A stretch of 64,000 bases of DNA, taken from a virus. Taxonomy: Duplodnaviria > Caudoviricetes. Below the pieces are notes generated by a model, which did no database searches, was not told the origin of the DNA, and saw only the letters and a program-made list of their open reading frames with translations. The stretch lies in the IMG/VR virus record IMGVR_UViG_3300033075_001228. One strand, 5' to 3'. The position numbers were made by a program, and so were the translations under genes. Shown piece by piece: positions 6,429 through 48,973 of the stretch; within the stretch, counting starts at the first letter, position 1; each line of letters opens with the position of its first letter.

Positions 6429-7427
6429 GTGTCGGGCATTCTTGACAGCAAATCACGTGTTTTAGACACTGTCGTTACGTTAGAAGGACGACGGCAGATT
6501 GCTAACGCAGATCTTCAGATTAGGTACGTGTCGTTTACAGACGGAGCGACGTACTACAGGCCAGATCTTGTTTCTGGCTCTGCAGACGCATCGTCTCGCA
6601 TCTACCTAGAGCAGTGTCACCTGCCACAGGACTCTATCACGTTAGAGGCGGATGATTCTGGTAAGCTATCGCCGTTTGGAAACGCTGCTGGGCTTTCTGT
6701 TAAGGATGGTCAAATACTTGCGTATTCATTTGATGCATTGACAGCCTCTGTCCTTACTGGCTCAAGGCAAGAAGTAAGGATTCTTAAAGGTGACGAATTC
6801 GCTTCAACTGCTGCAACTTTGCTAGCGTCGTCAATTGATAACTTCACGAATCTTAGGTTGATAGGCACAAAAGACCTGATCTTTGAAGATGATGGCTTCG
6901 CTGCAGGTCCGTCACGCGTAGAGTTCACTATTCACAACAACAAACCAATCCCAGATGCAACGAGTCATGTAGCTCATATCAATCATCTTGAAAGTTTGTT
7001 TCAAGACGTCAGGCTTAGCAAGGTGATCAACTTCAGGTATCTCCCGCCGATCAACAAACTGAGCGACAATTCGATCGACAAAAAAGACCATAGAAACACG
7101 GGTCCACACCAGCTCGGTTACTACAAGCCCTGGGGCCGTTCACACGCTTCCGGGCTTTCACCTGCTCAGTTAGAGCATGAGCTTCAACACTACAAGAGCA
7201 TCGGGTACTGCAAAGAAGTTAACTTTGATCCGACGTCACGTGACAACAACCTCGTTGGCCAGTTTTTTGAGGTTGGGTTTAACGTCATGAAAAAACTTGA
7301 CGTTATCGATTACGGCTGGTATACGTGGAAAGGCGCTCGTCGCCACGCGTTTTTTGTCGGTAAGGTGATGACAGATGAAAATGGTTCACATACCTTCATT
7401 CACTTGTTTACGCTAGTGTTTGGGTGA
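6429..7427 (+). CDS. Putative virion (baseplate/tail-collar-like) protein
   Basis: N-terminus GILD..VLDTVVTLEGRRQIA is paralogous to the 16334 gene; sits in the structural block. Confidence 0.55.
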   Translation: MSGILDSKSRVLDTVVTLEGRRQIANADLQIRYVSFTDGATYYRPDLVSGSADASSRIYLEQCHLPQDSITLEADDSGKLSPFGNAAGLSVKDGQILAYSFDALTASVLTGSRQEVRILKGDEFASTAATLLASSIDNFTNLRLIGTKDLIFEDDGFAAGPSRVEFTIHNNKPIPDATSHVAHINHLESLFQDVRLSKVINFRYLPPINKLSDNSIDKKDHRNTGPHQLGYYKPWGRSHASGLSPAQLEHELQHYKSIGYCKEVNFDPTSRDNNLVGQFFEVGFNVMKKLDVIDYGWYTWKGARRHAFFVGKVMTDENGSHTFIHLFTLVFG

Positions 7428-14035: not shown

Positions 14036-16048
14036 ATGAGTGTCTCGCTACCTTCAAGGGAAGTGTATGCTGTCGACGTCCCGGAGGTGAGGGTGTTTGA
14101 TGGCTCGTTTGTCTATAACTTTTTCACCTTTGATGAAAGCGTTTCTGAGACCGGCGGCGTTCCCGCAAAGTTCCTGCAGCGTGACGCTGAGCAGATTGAT
14201 TCAGGTTTTTTGCAATACGCAACGACCCGAGCCCCTCGTTTAGTCAAGCTCTCATGGAAGGTGCCACGGTTAGTTGAGCCAGGAAACCTGGTGTCTGACC
14301 AAAGCCAGAGGGCACATGTTTTTTCGTCTAATGCACAAGATGGTTCGCTGATTGCTGACAACCTGGATAAGGTTGTGACAGAAGACCACTTCTCGTCAAA
14401 CAACTACGTTGCCGTCAGCTTTCATGATGGTGAAATTGACGACAAGATCCATTATCTTGTGTCTGGTTCGTACGTAGCGCAAACTACGTTTGAGCACCAT
14501 GACAACGATGTTGGCCACTACAAAGCAGCACATAGGCTGTCGTCATTGACGCCCAAACACATCAAGCCGCACTTTTTGTTTAGGTCGTTAGCGTCAGCTC
14601 CTCAGGCTCATGGAACTCGTTTCTTTGACAAGTCAGGCAAACGTATCTTTAACGATTACTTTCGTCGACTTAAGAAGGTTGTTGTCAACGCGCAGGTCAA
14701 CAGCAGGCTGTTTCACGACATAACAAACAGATCGATCCGTGACCCACACTCGCCGTTCGCGTCTGACATGCAAAACATGCATAAGTTTACGAGGAAGCTT
14801 AAGCATCAGGTCCAACAAAGGTCGTTGTCACAGGTCGATGAGGCTGATTTTAAGACCTTTGTGCCGTTCATCGACCTCAAGGTCCGGCGCACGGCACAAA
14901 GGTATGACCTTTCAGCCGCCGAGATCGTTGGATACATCATTGACAAGGTTGAGATCACGGAGTCTGGAGAGGCCAAAGAAAGCAGCCCAATCATCATTGA
15001 CAACCCGAAGATCAGCTCGACTGCTGACTTTTTCGTTCGCTACAACGCAACGTACGTGTATTCAATTCGAACCGTGGCTCAGTTTACGCTCCCGGCGATC
15101 GATGACGACACGGGTGACGTAGCAACGATCAAGGTGTTGATCAGCTCAAAGCCATCAAGCAAGGTCTACATCAAAACAGTTGAGAACGTGGCGCCTCCCG
15201 CGCCCGCCGACCTGAACTTTACGTGGGACTATGAGCGAATCAACCCAGCGACAGCTGACTTTGACCATGAGTCTGGGCAGCAGCTTCCGGGTACTGGCAG
15301 GCCGGGCAGCTTGATGATTCATTGGGCATTTCCGCCTAACTCTCAGCGTGACATCAAGAAGTTCCAGGTCTTCCGCCGTCGTGACGTCAATCATCCGTTT
15401 GAGTTGATAAAGATGTATGACTTTGATGACTCGTTGGTCAAGATGCCAAACGCAGAAAACCCTGATCCTTCGTTGGTTGAGCACCTGACGACGCCATGTA
15501 CTTTTTTTTACGATGATGATTTTCACGTAGGTGACCACAACTTCCATAGCCTCAACACCGACGCAACGTCGCAAGACAAACACCCTGGTTCATCAACGTT
15601 CATCTATGCAGTCGCTAGCATAGACGCACATGGGCTGACGTCAGGTTTTTCTGCACAGTATGAGGTGTGGTTTGACCAGTTTAAGAACAGGCTTCAAAAA
15701 CGTTTGGTTAGCCATACAGGTGCCCCAAAGCCGTATCCAAACCTTTACCTTGAGGCTGATACCTTTGTGGACACCATTCGCGTGTCTGGGCCAAACAGCA
15801 AGCGCATGAGCTTATACTTCAACCCGGAGTTTTACTACCTGTATGATGACAACGAACGCTTGACAAGTGTGCTAGCGACCAAGCAGGCTGGCGGCAGCTA
15901 CAAGCTACAGTTCATCAACACGGACAACCAGAAAAGCACAGTTGTGGATGTCGTCGTGAACGATATGATAAAAGCTGCACCATCTGTAGCTGCATCACCA
16001 GAGGTTCGTTTTGGTTCCCGTCGATCTGCCCCGCGTCGTTCTCGTTGA
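14036..16048 (+). CDS. Putative virion protein with an Fn3-like domain
   Basis: APPAPADL...LMIHW...FQVFRR...FIYAVASIDAHGLTSGFS. Confidence 0.6.
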   Translation: MSVSLPSREVYAVDVPEVRVFDGSFVYNFFTFDESVSETGGVPAKFLQRDAEQIDSGFLQYATTRAPRLVKLSWKVPRLVEPGNLVSDQSQRAHVFSSNAQDGSLIADNLDKVVTEDHFSSNNYVAVSFHDGEIDDKIHYLVSGSYVAQTTFEHHDNDVGHYKAAHRLSSLTPKHIKPHFLFRSLASAPQAHGTRFFDKSGKRIFNDYFRRLKKVVVNAQVNSRLFHDITNRSIRDPHSPFASDMQNMHKFTRKLKHQVQQRSLSQVDEADFKTFVPFIDLKVRRTAQRYDLSAAEIVGYIIDKVEITESGEAKESSPIIIDNPKISSTADFFVRYNATYVYSIRTVAQFTLPAIDDDTGDVATIKVLISSKPSSKVYIKTVENVAPPAPADLNFTWDYERINPATADFDHESGQQLPGTGRPGSLMIHWAFPPNSQRDIKKFQVFRRRDVNHPFELIKMYDFDDSLVKMPNAENPDPSLVEHLTTPCTFFYDDDFHVGDHNFHSLNTDATSQDKHPGSSTFIYAVASIDAHGLTSGFSAQYEVWFDQFKNRLQKRLVSHTGAPKPYPNLYLEADTFVDTIRVSGPNSKRMSLYFNPEFYYLYDDNERLTSVLATKQAGGSYKLQFINTDNQKSTVVDVVVNDMIKAAPSVAASPEVRFGSRRSAPRRSR

Positions 16049-16309
16049 TCAGGTCTTGGGCCTCATGTTCGTAGCTGGCATCATAGCGAAGAAGCTAAGA
16101 AGAAAATTGGTGCTTCTACTTCAATACGCAAACAAAAGGCTGTTCTTCAATGCATGAAAGATGGTACAGTATTGAGGGAATTTCCTTCATTGAATGAAGC
16201 AGCACAATTTGTAAACGGACATGCTGGTAAAGTGTCCGATGTGTTGTGCGGTCGTCGATATACGCACAAGGGATATGTATGGCGGTACGGTATGCTCAAA
16301 GTGGTTTGA
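16049..16309 (+). pseudogene. Homing-endonuclease C-terminal remnant (NUMOD3 + NUMOD1 DNA-binding modules)
   Basis: Translates as ...HHSEEAKKKIGAS..RKQKAVLQCMKDGTVLREFPSLNEAAQFVNGHAGKVSDVLCGRRYTHKGYVWRY..; no nuclease domain and no start before NUMOD3. Confidence 0.8.
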
Positions 16310-16333
16310 CCACAGACAGGGTTGAGGTGTAAC

Positions 16334-17050
16334 ATCGGATTTTTGGATCACACAACTAACAACATCGTCCTTGACGCAGTGTTGACTGACGTTGGTAGGC
16401 AATTTTTGGCACGCAACGACGGCAGCTTTTCTATCAGCAAGTTCGCCCTCGCCGACGATGAAGTCAACTATAACATCATCGCAAAGTACGGCAGGACTGT
16501 CGGCAGGGAAAAGATCGAAAAGAACACCCCGATCTTCGAGGCGCTGACAAACCAGCAGCACGCGCAGAAGTATAGGCTTGTCAGCGTGTCAAACCCTAAC
16601 CTGCTTCGCTTACCAACGATGTCGTTGTCAGGCGACTCAAACGTCGATGGCCAAAACAGCGTCATCACTTTGGGCAGAAACCAGCAAAAAACAGCTACTG
16701 CTACGGTTGAACAGACGATCCAGAACGAAACAACGATTGACGTAGAGCTGAGGGACCAGACGTTCATCGTTGAGGTTCCGAACCTCTTTTTGCAGATCTT
16801 GCGTCAGTCGCCAGAAAACATCGACGGCCAGCAACGCGCGACATACATCCTGACGCGTTCTCCTGCAGAAAACGCATTCGGCGGCAGCTCAGTGCAGTTT
16901 ACGCTATCCGTAAAGAGCCTGACAGATGCTTTGTTCACTGTCTACGGTACGACCGCTAACAAGGCAAGGATCAGGACGTCGATCAAGGTGACTGGCGTGC
17001 AGTCAGGTGCCGTCAAGGACATCAGTGTTGTCATCGATAAGAACCTATGA
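16334..17050 (+). CDS. Putative virion (baseplate/tail-collar-like) protein; probable ATC start
   Basis: (I/M)GFLDHTTNNIVLDAVLTDVGRQFLA..ISKFALADDEVNY; SD GAGGTG at 16324-16329; track start is TTG 16322. Confidence 0.7.
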   Translation: MGFLDHTTNNIVLDAVLTDVGRQFLARNDGSFSISKFALADDEVNYNIIAKYGRTVGREKIEKNTPIFEALTNQQHAQKYRLVSVSNPNLLRLPTMSLSGDSNVDGQNSVITLGRNQQKTATATVEQTIQNETTIDVELRDQTFIVEVPNLFLQILRQSPENIDGQQRATYILTRSPAENAFGGSSVQFTLSVKSLTDALFTVYGTTANKARIRTSIKVTGVQSGAVKDISVVIDKNL

Positions 17051-17226
17051 ACGAGCAAGTCGAAGTAACTGTCAAACACAGCGTTGGAGCAGAAGGAAGC
17101 GGTTGGTACGTCTGGGAATCGGAGTATCCAGAAGAGGGATATGTCTACTTTAGCGCCAAGCGTCCGACTGCTGATGAGCTAAGAACGATCTGCGAAAGCT
17201 ACGTTGAAGAAAAGAGCGCAAAGTGA
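17047..17226 (+). CDS. Small hypothetical protein (59 aa) MNEQVEVTVKHSVGAEGSGWYVWESEYPEEGYVYF...
   Basis: ATGA overlap with the upstream stop; below the track length cutoff. Confidence 0.6.
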   Translation: MNEQVEVTVKHSVGAEGSGWYVWESEYPEEGYVYFSAKRPTADELRTICESYVEEKSAK

Positions 17227-17362
17227 GTTTGCTCAGTACGATCGTGACAGAAAACATGATCAATGGTTCCAAACACGAGGCATGAGATTAGTTAGAGTGA
17301 TTGATATGGAGATCTTGAATCCGGATGCTCGGCCGTTGATCCTAGCACGAATGGAGGGCTAA
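17204..17362 (+). pseudogene. C-terminal remnant of a Vsr/DUF559-like endonuclease
   Basis: QYDRDRKHDQWFQTRGMRLVRVIDMEI matches the D..RD..L...G..V.R C-terminal motif; catalytic part missing. Confidence 0.6.
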
Positions 17363-17366
17363 TTCT

Positions 17367-18596
17367 ACGGCAACTTTTAAAGAAATTCTCCCGAGCGACA
17401 TCAAGTCGACGCGGTCGTTCTTGTCTCAGCTTATCGATGTCCTGCAAGAGGACATCAGTGGGTCAACGTCAAGGCGAAAGTATCAGGCGTTTGTCACCGG
17501 CGGCGTAGGGCCTGGTGTCACCAGCTCGTTGTTTCAAACGGTCTATGACCAGGACTTTACGCTTCAGACTGCTAACCCTGTTCTTGACATGACGATCGGC
17601 CTGTTCCCTGACGGGTCAACTGTGGCTTCGTCGTTTGCTGGAACTGATGCGGCTGGTAAGGAGTTGTTTCCATCATCGTCATTGATGATGCGAGAGAAGA
17701 TGGACATTTACAGGCAGTTTGCGTCAGCGCTGTTGGGCGACTCTACCGCGGCGTTCACAGCCGCGTTTGATTCATCAGACGTTAGCGATGAAATTGACGT
17801 TGCGTTGTTCATCGCCTTCAAGCGGTTGTTTGCAAGGGACCAGATCAAACGCGAGACGTTTGCAATGAAGTTTTTTCAGTCTGCTGCGATCAACTTTAAC
17901 TCAGCAGGAACGACCCCTTCTGAGACGCAGGCGCAGCCGCCCAACCTTTTCATTGGGTCGACGTCAGGCTCTGCGATCTTTACTGACATCGGCGCGGCGA
18001 CAAACAAGCTGACGACGTTCGGTGGACAGGTGGGCAACATTGTTGACTCAGCAAACACGACCAGAAACGTGGGGCTGGTGTTTTACGACCGTGGCATCGT
18101 GGTCTTGGACCTTACAAAGATCACTAGCGCAAGCCAGTTTGTGTCAGGGACGATTGACGCAATGCACTCGCTAGGCTCGCTTGTCCTTGGCGCGAACGGC
18201 ACACAGACACAGTTCAAGTCAAAGATGATTCCTGACTTTGTTGTCAGCGCGTCGATCGACAACGTTATCGACCACATTGCGTCCTGTAGGCTTGGTTCTG
18301 GTTCCTCGACGGCAATCACCTTCCAGAACACGACCAACATCAACAGTTCATTGATCTTTTGTAGGGCAGGCGCAGACGAGTTTAACTACTCATCCAATCC
18401 TACGTTCACCGACTCCAACAACAGGATCCAGGTCATTGACGTTGGTCAGGAAGACACACAACAGACGTTTACGTTCATCACAAGCGTCGGTTTGTATGAC
18501 GCTAACGACAACCTCCTCGCGGTTGCAAAGCTATCGAGGCCAGTAGAAAAATCGCCGGAGAGAGACCTGACCCTACGCGTCCGGTTGGATTTTTGA
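17367..18596 (+). CDS. Putative virion (baseplate-like) protein; probable ACG start
   Basis: C-terminal FNYSSNPT...FITSVGLYDANDNLLAVAKLSRPVEK..LRVRLDF; N-terminal (T/M)ATFKEILPSDIKS aligns with paralog 18768; track start is TTG 17421. Confidence 0.7.
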   Translation, partial: TATFKEILPSDIKSTRSFLSQLIDVLQEDISGSTSRRKYQAFVTGGVGPGVTSSLFQTVYDQDFTLQTANPVLDMTIGLFPDGSTVASSFAGTDAAGKELFPSSSLMMREKMDIYRQFASALLGDSTAAFTAAFDSSDVSDEIDVALFIAFKRLFARDQIKRETFAMKFFQSAAINFNSAGTTPSETQAQPPNLFIGSTSGSAIFTDIGAATNKLTTFGGQVGNIVDSANTTRNVGLVFYDRGIVVLDLTKITSASQFVSGTIDAMHSLGSLVLGANGTQTQFKSKMIPDFVVSASIDNVIDHIASCRLGSGSSTAITFQNTTNINSSLIFCRAGADEFNYSSNPTFTDSNNRIQVIDVGQEDTQQTFTFITSVGLYDANDNLLAVAKLSRPVEKSPERDLTLRVRLDF

Positions 18597-18767: not shown

Positions 18768-21320
18768 ATGTCATTTTTCAAGGTAGGCCCAGGTGACGTA
18801 GAGTCGTTCACTGTTGTCACAAACCCAAGCAGGCATTTCACGTCGAGCTCTGTGGCTGGTTCAACAGGATCTGTGTACGTCTTCGCCAGGCGGTCGCACC
18901 TTGAAAAAGACGTTGCTCCTGTTTCTTCATACGTAGACTCCTTGCACATTGATGACGATTTTTCATCAATGTTACGAAGCCTGCAGCAGATGGGACGTTA
19001 TGCCCACGTCACTGGTTCGTCTGCTGCGTTTGTGCTGACTGCCAGCCGTGCGTTTCCAGGGATGATGCAGAGCTACCTTAACAAGGTCAATGCAAGCGAA
19101 ACGTCGCAGCGCAAGAGAAAGACGTTGGAGGTGTCAAGGACAACACCGACCGTTGATTTCTCGGCTGAGTCTGTCAAAAAGCTTGTCATAAAAGATCAGC
19201 TTTCACAATACTATCGCACAGTCTATCCATCTGCGCACTGGGGGTACACCAACTACAGCAGCTTGAATTTTTTCACTGCGTCGACCGTTCCTACGTCATC
19301 TTGCCTGCTGTACCCAAACGTTTCCGATGGCTTGGCGCACGATGGGTTTGTGACAGGAACGTACACCCCTAGCGGCGCTTTAAGCTTTGATTTCTACATC
19401 AAGCCATGCTACAGACCTGACCAGGTAGACGGCCAGTTTAAGGCAGGAACCATCTTTCATCTGTCGTCAACGTATGCATTGTCCTTGGTCACCGGGTCTG
19501 CGAAGGATGAAAACGGAAGGCCTCTAACATTTCGGTTGCAGCTTCAGCTGTCACACAGCGCTGATGTGCCACCGTCGATGCTACGCCCGAGCGGAAGCAA
19601 CCTCGCTAGCTTCGTCGTCGGCGGTGCTGCGACGGGAAGCCAACAGGGGTATGCGCCAGCGAACCTTGCATTTTTGTCCGACGACAACTCGTTGCTGTGG
19701 AACCGTTGGCACCATGTCGTTGTGCGATGGGGAACGTTAGCTGTCAACGAGGGAACAGGGTCGTTTAACATTGATGGCGTAGACCGTGGCGTCTTTGTGG
19801 TTCCTTCGTCGACTGTCGCCCCTCGGACCTTTCCAGCTGGCGGCCGCTCAAGCCCCGACGTCTTGGTCGTTGGCAACTACTTTGAGGGACTGAACTCTGG
19901 CACGGGATCGTTGTCATACTTCTTTGCGGCAGACCCTTCATCAAGGGAAGGCCTTGAAGAGATGGACGCAACCCCTAGCGTCAATGAGCCTAACCCTGCG
20001 CGTTACAGCTTCAACCACCCGTTGAACGCAGAGGTCCATGACCTTGCCATCAAACGTTACTACATGTCGGACTATGACCTTGAGACGTCATCGTCTGTCG
20101 GACCCAAGTCTATTGATAACGCAATAGCGTTTTATCTTCCACCATTCTTTGTTGATGAGTCGCCGTTTAGGCGTTCTGTGGCTGGCTTTGGCGGCATCCC
20201 ACAAACGCCTTTCTTTGCTGTCGACGGAACGACGAACGATCCTTTCAACGTTGCGCTCGCCTTCGGCGTCGCTGGTCATTACATCAATATTGAAAACTAC
20301 CTACGTGACTTTGGCTCAAACGTTTGGCCAAGGGCACACCACATGTCTGCAACAATCCTTAGCCAGACAGGCCAGGCTCGGACAGCGAACCAGTTTCTTT
20401 ACGATCAACCGTATGTCAGGCGAAGGAACCTTCTCATCCTTCCGTGCGATGACGGGCAGTTTGTGCCGAGCTACGAGCTGCTGGCATCAGAGAGCCTGAG
20501 GACGTCTGCTGTCGATGACCTTGGCAACGAGGACCTTAGCTTTGTGAACGTTGGCGCGTTGCTGCTCACAACGTCCCTATTGTTCTCGACAGATTTTGGC
20601 GGGGACAACTCGTTTGTGAACGAGTCGATCGGTTTTACGCCAGAAAATCCTGGGCTTCCGCCAGGGCGGGCGTTCAGTCAGTACGTTGCAAACCTTAACG
20701 AAGCAGTTGCGTCAGGAAGCTTTGATCCAGGGATCCAACAAGGCGCCGCCCTTGCGGTATTTCAACGTACTCGTGATCCGTCATCAAACCAGGTTACGTT
20801 TTTTGACATCAGTAACCTTTACTACGGCAAGCGGATCAAACCAGGGTCTGTTGAGCTTAGCGATCCCTCTTTGAGCGGCTCATCTGGAGCTGTCTCTGTG
20901 ACGTTGAAGGATGATGGTAGGGGTACGTTATACAGGGCAGACTGCTTTACCACTGCTTCCACGTGGAACTCTGTCGGGACTGTTTTCTATGATGAAGGCA
21001 TCATAGCCATCAAAAACCCACACCTCTATTTCTTTGGAAAGGAAGGGTTTGAGCTGACGTTAAAGGGCGAGCAAAACATTCACGTGATGACGGTCAGCGT
21101 CCTTGCTCCAGCAAACCACCTTAACTCTTCGTCAAACCCTAACTTCATGGTGGTGCCGCCTTCTGCGTCGCCAAACGATCCCGAGAGGGAGTTTGTATAC
21201 ATCACTGGCATCAATTTCCATGACGACAACCTTAATGTCATCATGAAAACCCAGCTTGCCCAGCCGATCGTAAAAAGACACGGCGATCGAATTCGTTTTC
21301 GAATCAAGTATGACTTCTAA
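18768..21320 (+). CDS. Virion protein with a LamG/concanavalin-like domain; paralog of the 17367 gene
   Basis: SFDFYIKP, RWHHVVVRW, FNIDG; C-terminal NSSSNPN..VYITGINFHDDNLNVIMKTQLAQPIVK..IKYDF. Confidence 0.65.
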   Translation: MSFFKVGPGDVESFTVVTNPSRHFTSSSVAGSTGSVYVFARRSHLEKDVAPVSSYVDSLHIDDDFSSMLRSLQQMGRYAHVTGSSAAFVLTASRAFPGMMQSYLNKVNASETSQRKRKTLEVSRTTPTVDFSAESVKKLVIKDQLSQYYRTVYPSAHWGYTNYSSLNFFTASTVPTSSCLLYPNVSDGLAHDGFVTGTYTPSGALSFDFYIKPCYRPDQVDGQFKAGTIFHLSSTYALSLVTGSAKDENGRPLTFRLQLQLSHSADVPPSMLRPSGSNLASFVVGGAATGSQQGYAPANLAFLSDDNSLLWNRWHHVVVRWGTLAVNEGTGSFNIDGVDRGVFVVPSSTVAPRTFPAGGRSSPDVLVVGNYFEGLNSGTGSLSYFFAADPSSREGLEEMDATPSVNEPNPARYSFNHPLNAEVHDLAIKRYYMSDYDLETSSSVGPKSIDNAIAFYLPPFFVDESPFRRSVAGFGGIPQTPFFAVDGTTNDPFNVALAFGVAGHYINIENYLRDFGSNVWPRAHHMSATILSQTGQARTANQFLYDQPYVRRRNLLILPCDDGQFVPSYELLASESLRTSAVDDLGNEDLSFVNVGALLLTTSLLFSTDFGGDNSFVNESIGFTPENPGLPPGRAFSQYVANLNEAVASGSFDPGIQQGAALAVFQRTRDPSSNQVTFFDISNLYYGKRIKPGSVELSDPSLSGSSGAVSVTLKDDGRGTLYRADCFTTASTWNSVGTVFYDEGIIAIKNPHLYFFGKEGFELTLKGEQNIHVMTVSVLAPANHLNSSSNPNFMVVPPSASPNDPEREFVYITGINFHDDNLNVIMKTQLAQPIVKRHGDRIRFRIKYDF

Positions 21321-48580: not shown

Positions 48581-48937
48581 GGGGGCGAAAAGGTTTCGAC
48601 GTGGCACAAAGATCCATTGCAGCAGGCACCGGTGCACGAGGGTCGGTTAAAACCCAAGTGAACGTTAGTTGCCAACGATAACGGCATCGTTTCCCTCGCC
48701 CACGCGGCCTGAGGGATTGGGTGTCCTGGTCGACCTCGAAACAGAATGACCGGGTGGCGCCAGCCGACGCTGGCAAAAACGTCGCCGGACGCTAAACGGA
48801 ACGTCTCACGGCCGAGACAGACGCTAAACAGTACGACCTAGCCTTGCCCGAAGGCGATCAAAGAGAGGGCCAAGCCTGTGGATGATGTGGTGGGACGGCG
48901 TGTTGCGGACGTGGGTTCGACTCCCACCGCTTCCACC
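48581..48937 (+). ncRNA. ssrA: tmRNA; tag reading frame 48671-48712 encodes (A)ANDNGIVSLAHAA*
   Basis: 5' GGGGGCGAAAAGGTTTCGAC; 3' GTGGGTTCGACTCCCACCGCTTCCACC; G3-U70 pair; TAGTT-GCC resume context. Confidence 0.95.
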
Positions 48938-48973
48938 GTGTTTTAATTGAACGCTTTCAACGTATGAACAGAC

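Follow-up and report, generated by a model that had tools for sequence, protein, structure and literature searches.

How are two neighboring phage genes translated whose conserved reading frames begin with ATC and ACG, and why does each of them lie directly behind the remnant of a homing endonuclease gene? This question is raised by a 64,000-nucleotide (nt) stretch of DNA (the whole stretch is termed the window herein) from the IMG/VR virus record IMGVR_UViG_3300033075_001228 (Duplodnaviria; Caudoviricetes), in which gene 1 starts at ATC 16334 and gene 2 at ACG 17367. We define near-cognate codons here as start codons other than ATG, GTG, and TTG (in these loci ATC, ACG, ATT, and GTC). Our analysis suggests that both genes are probably intact and translated, with initiation at AUC and ACG on a start region that comes from the 3' end of an endonuclease cassette. 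Every gene in the stretch around positions 14036 to 18596 is on the plus strand, and the features concerned are the following.

16049 to 16309, plus strand: C-terminal remnant of a GIY-YIG/NUMOD endonuclease, 86 codons and TGA (identified with Pfam, PHROGs, and an alignment to a protein of relative L011)
16324 to 16336, plus strand: gene 1 start region (class A), consisting of GAGGTG (16324 to 16329), the spacer TAAC with a TAA stop, and ATC
16334 to 17050, plus strand: gene 1, conserved, 238 amino acids, starting with ATC (N-terminus aligned to the Met of homologues)
17204 to 17362, plus strand: C-terminal remnant of a DUF7487 plus PD-(D/E)XK-like endonuclease, about 45 homologous codons and TAA (identified by blastp to intact relatives)
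17353 to 17369, plus strand: gene 2 start region (class B), consisting of GGAGGG (17353 to 17358), TAA at 17360, a 4-nt spacer, and ACG
17367 to 18596, plus strand: gene 2, conserved, 409 amino acids, starting with ACG (identified by alignment to orthologues)

The relatives used for comparison are IMG/VR loci (L numbers below), 40 with gene 1 and 80 with gene 2, at 36 to 87% identity; several are on contigs of 270 to 370 kb, in the size range of jumbo phages. When the window was searched at the DNA level against 50,697 phage records, there was no match, so that relatives are known at the protein level only, and the nearest named ones (Flavobacterium phage immuto, Microcystis phage Mel-JY01, and Rhodothermus phage RM378) are distant at that level.

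Start codons of gene 1 and gene 2

An earlier note, made from the sequence of the window alone, had drawn attention to the two odd codons, which stand where Met is expected and have good Shine-Dalgarno sequences. The coordinates and alignments with about 70 orthologues of each gene agree with that description. In gene 1, ATC (16334 to 16336) is separated from GAGGTG by a 4-nt spacer. The Met of MGFLDH is its counterpart in alignments with phage immuto, Mel-JY01, and 72 IMG/VR junctions, and an annotated homologue starting with MGYLDN aligns from its first codon with IGFLDH of the window. Counted over distinct junctions, gene 1 begins with ATG in 72 cases, with TTG in 1, and with ATC in 5, and a sixth ATC locus was added by a pattern scan in which the start codon was left free. 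In gene 2, ACG (17367 to 17369) follows GGAGGG, the TAA at 17360, and a 4-nt spacer, and it aligns with the Met of MA(T/I)FKEILPSD; an annotated homologue of the pattern MS..FK..D aligns from its first codon with TATFKEILPSD of the window. Codon 1 of gene 2 is ATG in about 59 distinct junctions, GTG or TTG in 10, and near-cognate in 11, with two further near-cognate junctions from the pattern scans.

The codons that follow the odd starts are conserved at the protein level. We compared the proportions of nonsynonymous and synonymous differences (pN and pS) and obtained a pN/pS of 0.15 with a pS of 0.89 for codons 2 to 19 of gene 1 among the ATC loci, and a pN/pS of 0.25 with a pS of 0.82 for codons 2 to 18 of gene 2 among the odd-start loci. 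As judged from these sequence comparisons, the codons after both odd starts are clearly under purifying selection, and low pN/pS values at such high pS (0.82 to 0.89) lead us to read both N-termini as translated. No canonical start was found that could give the conserved N-terminus of either gene. We infer that initiation actually occurs at the near-cognate codons. A scan of the whole window found no further gene in need of a near-cognate start, in agreement with the earlier note, which had seen no other such start. The window also has no tRNA that might explain odd initiation, and the class A motif is not a repeated signal elsewhere in it.

Association of near-cognate starts with endonuclease junctions

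We grouped the start regions into two classes. A class A junction is the gene 1 start region AGGTGTAAC-ATC, and a class B junction is the gene 2 start region GGAGGN-stop-N4-codon 1. The earlier note had also placed each gene behind the remnant of a different type of endonuclease; the matching pieces are a NUMOD piece at 16049 to 16306 and a DUF7487/PD-(D/E)XK piece at 17204 to 17359. It had proposed that odd starts should co-occur with an upstream endonuclease among orthologous loci, and this is what we found. For gene 1, ATC is present in 6 of 6 class A junctions and in 0 of 73 others, and in each of the six ATC loci a decayed GIY-YIG/NUMOD remnant precedes the gene. An IMG/VR scan of the class A pattern with the codon left free returned, within the gene 1 context, ATC as the sole codon and none that is canonical. 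For gene 2, all 13 class B junctions have a near-cognate codon, each of them behind a DUF7487/PD-(D/E)XK endonuclease or its last codons. The near-cognate codon differs within the class, as follows.

ATC: L004, L044, L150, L011, L057, and L070
ACG: the window, L016, L063, L022, and L024
ATT: L126
GTC: L023

Free-codon scans of class B, which covered a metagenome collection in addition to IMG/VR, gave no ATG, GTG, or TTG at a junction of this type. At the gene 2 site, three more distant members of this endonuclease family abut GTG (L020 and L033) or TTG (L068), so that near-cognate codons are found at 13 of 16 gene 2 junctions behind this family (termed Vsr-like below) compared to 0 of 66 others, and ATG at none of the 16. 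GIY-YIG endonucleases that abut gene 2 keep ATG in 5 of 5 cases. All junctions outside classes A and B use ATG, GTG, or TTG. The association of odd starts with specific endonuclease lineages is thus real.

Shine-Dalgarno strength and the proposed mechanism of initiation

Shine-Dalgarno strength was expressed as the duplex energy with the anti-Shine-Dalgarno sequence. For gene 2, the median energies were −5.4 kcal/mol for ATG, −7.2 kcal/mol for GTG and TTG, and −10.0 kcal/mol for near-cognate codons (−9.8 kcal/mol in the window), and for gene 1 they were −6.0 kcal/mol for ATG versus −9.5 kcal/mol for ATC. The sequences preceding the odd codons are at working distance (GAGGTG plus 4 nt and GGAGGG plus 8 nt) and have duplex energies of −9.5 to −12.3 kcal/mol. 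Such a grading of the Shine-Dalgarno sequence against codon strength is expected if the odd codons work as starts and the protein dose is under stabilizing selection. The 13-nt class A start region is identical in 6 distinct loci while synonymous sites nearby are saturated, an indication that the start region itself is selected. In class B, the Shine-Dalgarno sequence is encoded by the C-terminal codons of the endonuclease (CTC GGA GGN, for Leu-Gly-Gly), and GGAGGG of the window accordingly sits within the last codons of the remnant.

In the mechanism that we propose, the initiator tRNA would read AUC in gene 1 and ACG in gene 2 as Met, and an unusually strong Shine-Dalgarno sequence within the last codons of a free-standing homing endonuclease gene would position the ribosome. 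The 3' junction of the cassette would consist of the Shine-Dalgarno sequence, the stop of the endonuclease, the short spacer, and the odd codon, all of them inherited with the cassette. Because only 1 to 4 nt separate the endonuclease stop from the start codon, the start region should be co-inherited with the cassette and hard to split from it by recombination.

Endonuclease remnants and intact relatives

The piece at 16049 to 16306 matched the Pfam family I-HmuI_NUMOD-like with an expectation value (E) of 5.2e-9, above the Pfam cutoff, in addition to a weak match to NUMOD1 (0.033) and a match to a PHROG annotated as HNH endonuclease (1e-7). It is 51% identical to residues 150 to 235 of an intact 238-amino-acid GIY-YIG/NUMOD endonuclease at the same site in L011, which has its GIY-YIG domain in residues 2 to 87 (E, 1.5e-12). 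In the window piece, Pfam gave no match to the GIY-YIG catalytic domain, suggesting that it is a remnant, the DNA-binding tail, rather than a working member. Among relatives, the GIY-YIG/NUMOD element is patchy at one intergenic site; homing and cleavage are putative here.

The second piece (17204 to 17359), a 52-codon frame, matched by blastp (E, 2e-8 to 1e-7) residues ∼250 to 290 of intact endonucleases of ∼300 amino acids (L024, L044, L063, and L022). Intact relatives of this length are present in L004, L044, L063, L070, L022, and L024. They carry DUF7487 repeats (E, 1e-8 to 7e-27), and their sole nuclease match was a weak one to the PD-(D/E)XK restriction endonuclease family REase_MTES_1575 (E, 0.0067; L063). 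By eye, their motif DAYV...VELDGxFWHG resembles Vsr/DUF559; a sequence search found no solved relative of these endonucleases, and no model confirmed the resemblance. The remnant in the window keeps only the last ∼45 residues, downstream of this motif. In the window (17286 to 17362) and in L016, the class B stub contains a short open reading frame (ORF) that is open from the Met of a GM(R/K)LVR motif to the stop 4 nt before ACG, and these stub ORFs might keep translation flowing into the gene 2 start. Both stubs end in a mini-ORF that consists of ATG or TTG followed by GAG GGN TAA.

On a quick gene 2 tree with moderate support, class B alleles are interspersed with ATG alleles that lack the cassette, as one would expect if the element is gained and lost. 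A position-wise comparison of class B and cassette-free alleles showed differences at codon 1, the third position of codon 7, and the first position of codon 14; lineage and base composition are confounding factors for these differences. L063 and L061, two loci of one sample, are the most similar pair in which one has the cassette and the other lacks it. Their identity is flat at only ∼77%, without a similarity gradient, so that the data reveal no recent homing event. In a further pair from one sample (3300015607), L007 ends within a GIY-YIG endonuclease and L048 begins with a piece of one, and the two sequences are 98.7% identical; L007 and L048 are probably one phage, which would then have ATC at gene 1 and ATG at gene 2 behind a GIY-YIG endonuclease.

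Alternative explanations for the near-cognate starts

Several observations weigh against initiation at the near-cognate codons. In Escherichia coli, AUC and AUU initiate at ∼1 to 2% and ACG at 0.1 to 1% of the AUG level, with an N-terminal Met (bioRxiv 10.1101/063800). Near-cognate initiation is by these efficiencies possible yet costly, unless the host is more permissive: the odd codons would cut expression 50- to 1,000-fold, which is severe for a virion protein, and the host may differ from E. coli in this respect. Fisher tests of the link between codon and junction gave P values of 1e-12 and 4e-9 but treat junctions as independent, although each junction class descends from one origin; the counts therefore overstate the independent support, which comes to roughly four endonuclease lineages plus several codon changes within class B. 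Furthermore, TTG is present at codon −4 of gene 1 in 4 of 6 class A loci (16322 in the window) and at codon +18 of gene 2 in 6 of 12 class B loci (17421 in the window). An in-frame ATG or GTG lies 14 codons upstream of gene 2 in the four intact-endonuclease loci L004, L044, L063, and L070, lacks a Shine-Dalgarno sequence, and could yield an extended gene 2 protein. These codons speak for true starts that are canonical: in gene 1 TTG 16322, and in gene 2 either TTG 17421 or an in-frame start farther upstream. The earlier note had named use of the two TTG codons by orthologues as an outcome that would speak against odd starts, and we consider canonical starts very unlikely, since none of them is conserved across its class. 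In place of TTG, codon −4 of gene 1 reads CTG in L063 and TTA in L070, and neither locus has an ATG, GTG, or TTG from the upstream stop to codon 19. In the window, TTG 16322 is the only canonical option near the gene 1 start, and it overlaps the Shine-Dalgarno sequence without having one of its own. Upstream of gene 2 the window has an in-frame TAG at 17343 and no ATG, GTG, or TTG before TTG 17421, 18 codons downstream of ACG, where initiation would drop 18 residues under purifying selection. This downstream TTG is missing in L011, where a stop is in frame at −4 and the first canonical codon comes at +54, and in L044 and L063, where it comes at +33 and +58, respectively. The earlier note had also raised restoration of the start at the RNA level, by splicing or ACG-to-AUG editing, to which a +1 frameshift that fuses gene 2 with the upstream ORF can be added. 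In favor of the frameshift, the upstream ORF always terminates in what is the −1 frame for gene 2 (stop plus 4 nt), so that a +1 shift would join the frames. However, the P-site codons (GGC, GGG, and GGA) re-pair poorly in +1, and the fusion would add ∼300 amino acids of endonuclease to a conserved protein. A group I intron was not found, with no Intron_gpI match at E values up to 5 in positions 15800 to 17600 of the window or at E values up to 1 in seven relatives that include intact cassettes (L004, L063, L022, L070, L007, L016, and L011), and G does not consistently precede GCA, although group I introns need it at their 3' splice site. C-to-U editing cannot mend ATC, ATT, or GTC, and RNA folding around either start gave no structure above shuffled sequence. 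We regard all of these RNA-level or frameshift routes as extremely improbable, and an assembly error or dead genes as still less credible. Metagenome assemblies made independently of each other contain junctions with the same odd codons (TAG-aaaa-ATC behind L147 and L149; TAA-acca-ACG behind L140, L141, and L145), which makes an artifact unlikely, and purifying selection on both genes argues against their being dead.

If initiation at the near-cognate codons is accepted, the avoidance of ATG has to be accounted for, and two accounts that both fit are inseparable on these data. It is possible, if short of probable, that an ATG would restore the target of the endonuclease, in line with the immunity that the earlier note had inferred. 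The Vsr-like endonuclease would then recognize the gene 2 start including its ATG, ATG copies would be cut and converted back so that genomes with the cassette retain any codon except ATG, and the start codon would offer the one non-wobble position that can be changed without a change in the protein. Consistent with this, the Vsr-like junctions without ATG belong to four distant lineages (class B, L020 and L033, and L068), while ATG is retained where a GIY-YIG endonuclease abuts this gene; in class B, the codon shifts among ATC, ACG, ATT, and GTC (for example, ACG in L024 and ATT in its close relative L126), and ATG, one step from ATC, ACG, and ATT, is yet never found there. Cassette-bearing and cassette-free relatives moreover co-occur in the same samples. 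On the other hand, odd codons persist where the endonuclease has decayed or been replaced (the window, L016, L011, L057, and L023), and at gene 1 the intact relatives of the endonuclease (in L011 and L066) adjoin ATG, while all six ATC loci have only remnants. The cleavage site is an assumption of this account, and the graded Shine-Dalgarno compensation explains the family specificity equally well. That compensation is central to the other account, in which a weak codon balances a strong Shine-Dalgarno sequence or translational coupling, i.e., rewired translation without any immunity. We give this account some credence without favoring it outright. The Leu-Gly-Gly codons would provide a near-perfect Shine-Dalgarno sequence and a stop 4 nt before the start, reinitiation together with strong ribosome binding would make ATG needless or excessive, and the weak codon would restore the dose. 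It is supported by the inverse relation between Shine-Dalgarno strength and codon strength across all junctions, including endonuclease-free ones, by odd codons that outlast the decay of the endonuclease, and by the invariance of the class A region. However, a gain of ∼4 kcal/mol in Shine-Dalgarno energy is unlikely to offset the loss expected from the E. coli figures, and the weak codon may have come first, with the Shine-Dalgarno sequence strengthened later. This account also leaves unexplained why ATT and ATA never replace ATC in class A and why ATG is absent from the 13 class B junctions. A founder accident carried along by the element appears unlikely as a cause. Somewhat less doubtful, though tentative, is a specific form of target-site immunity in which the endonuclease family targets the invariant ATG and first codons of an essential gene, carriers are immune through a near-cognate codon that is paid for with a stronger Shine-Dalgarno sequence, and ATG revertants are recut. 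If true, a selfish element would actively hold an essential gene on a weak start codon.

Comparison with known systems

In T4-like phages, genes for free-standing homing endonucleases (seg and mob; “intronless homing”) are found as insertions that lie between conserved genes and that abut or overlap the genes next to them; they spread with flanking DNA by co-conversion, are patchy among relatives, and decay in place (PMC2988022). As with the T4 seg genes, a GIY-YIG/NUMOD family is present here, and the second family is probably of the PD-(D/E)XK type. Unlike in seg and mob, the Shine-Dalgarno sequence and the near-cognate start of the downstream gene would belong to the end of the cassette. 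The T4 review covers start codons and coupling of the endonuclease genes themselves and not the loss of ATG by a downstream host gene (PMC2988022).

In L004 to L122, the junctions between g0 (the gene upstream of gene 1; see below) and g1, between g1 and g2, and between g2 and g3 are endonuclease insertion hot spots with gaps of 77 to 1,141, 7 to 2,275, and 8 to 1,665 nt, respectively, that contain GIY-YIG/NUMOD and DUF7487/PD-(D/E)XK genes, and some hot spots (in L012, L024, and L057) hold two endonuclease genes in tandem. In T4 gene 60, the translational bypass is likewise an odd feature of an essential gene that belongs to a homing endonuclease cassette (mobA). Unlike in gene 60, there is no coding gap here and there are no matching take-off and landing codons, and the oddity lies at initiation and not at elongation. 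A ribosome hop of the gene 60 type was rejected by inspection, as no matching landing codon is present. The AUU start of E. coli infC serves autoregulation by IF3. The AUU starts of E. coli infC and pcnB are near-cognate starts read by the initiator tRNA (cited in bioRxiv 10.1101/063800), and those proposed here would be of the same bacterial type. In contrast to infC and pcnB, they occur in phage genes that probably belong to a virion module, comprise ACG and GTC as well, and are linked with a mobile element.

Our literature searches turned up no report of a host gene with a near-cognate start behind a homing endonuclease. These loci combine two cassettes side by side, variation of the codon within one junction class, and retention of ATG with another endonuclease family at the same junction. 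They suggest that an essential neighbor can have its translation start taken over by the end of a selfish endonuclease cassette and that this neighbor is then kept on a near-cognate codon across lineages in which synonymous sites are saturated. Very few near-cognate sites of the bacterial type are known, and the loci would add natural starts at ACG, ATC, ATT, and possibly GTC; they offer a testable case for target-site immunity via the start codon or for dose control by a weak codon combined with a strong Shine-Dalgarno sequence. Gene callers limited to ATG, GTG, and TTG would truncate or miss such conserved genes in a large number of phage genomes; in the window, the result would be a 391-amino-acid instead of a 409-amino-acid protein or an added MRCN extension.

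Gene products and neighboring genes

Neither Pfam nor PHROGs gave a family for gene 1 or gene 2, and a PDB sequence search gave no match. The AlphaFold models were middling, with predicted local distance difference test scores of 70 and 71. Comparison of the gene 2 model by Foldseek and VIA-align reached a best Z score of 4.6; several phage tail and baseplate chains were among the matches and did not score above unrelated rows. The label “baseplate” in the earlier note thus found no backing in these sequence assignments or in the weak gene 2 fold matches (Z below 5), and as a reading of gene order it is a guess. The gene 1 product is probably part of the virion. The earlier note listed a gene 1 paralogue at 6429 to 7427. 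Overlapping tblastn matches indicate that the C-terminal ∼90 residues of gene 2 are common to an 850-amino-acid gene at 18768 to 21320. Two further conserved ORFs flank gene 1.

14036 to 16048, plus strand: g0, conserved gene of 670 amino acids, TGA at 16046 to 16048, with orthologues upstream of gene 1 in relatives
17047 to 17226, plus strand: small ORF of 59 amino acids whose ATG overlaps the gene 1 stop (ATGA), kept in some relatives

No Pfam or PHROGs family matched g0. The NUMOD remnant (region 16046 to 16309) is in frame right behind the TGA of g0, so that readthrough would append the DNA-binding tail; this position looks coincidental, since the homologous remnant in L063 is in another frame (GTGA overlap). 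The 59-amino-acid ORF has homologues in L007, L010, and L023 (54% identity) and is not part of the endonuclease. The sole RNA family match in the window is a phage-encoded transfer-messenger RNA gene at 48581 to 48938 on the plus strand (Rfam RF00023; 90.7 bits), with the tag peptide ANDNGIVSLAHAA.

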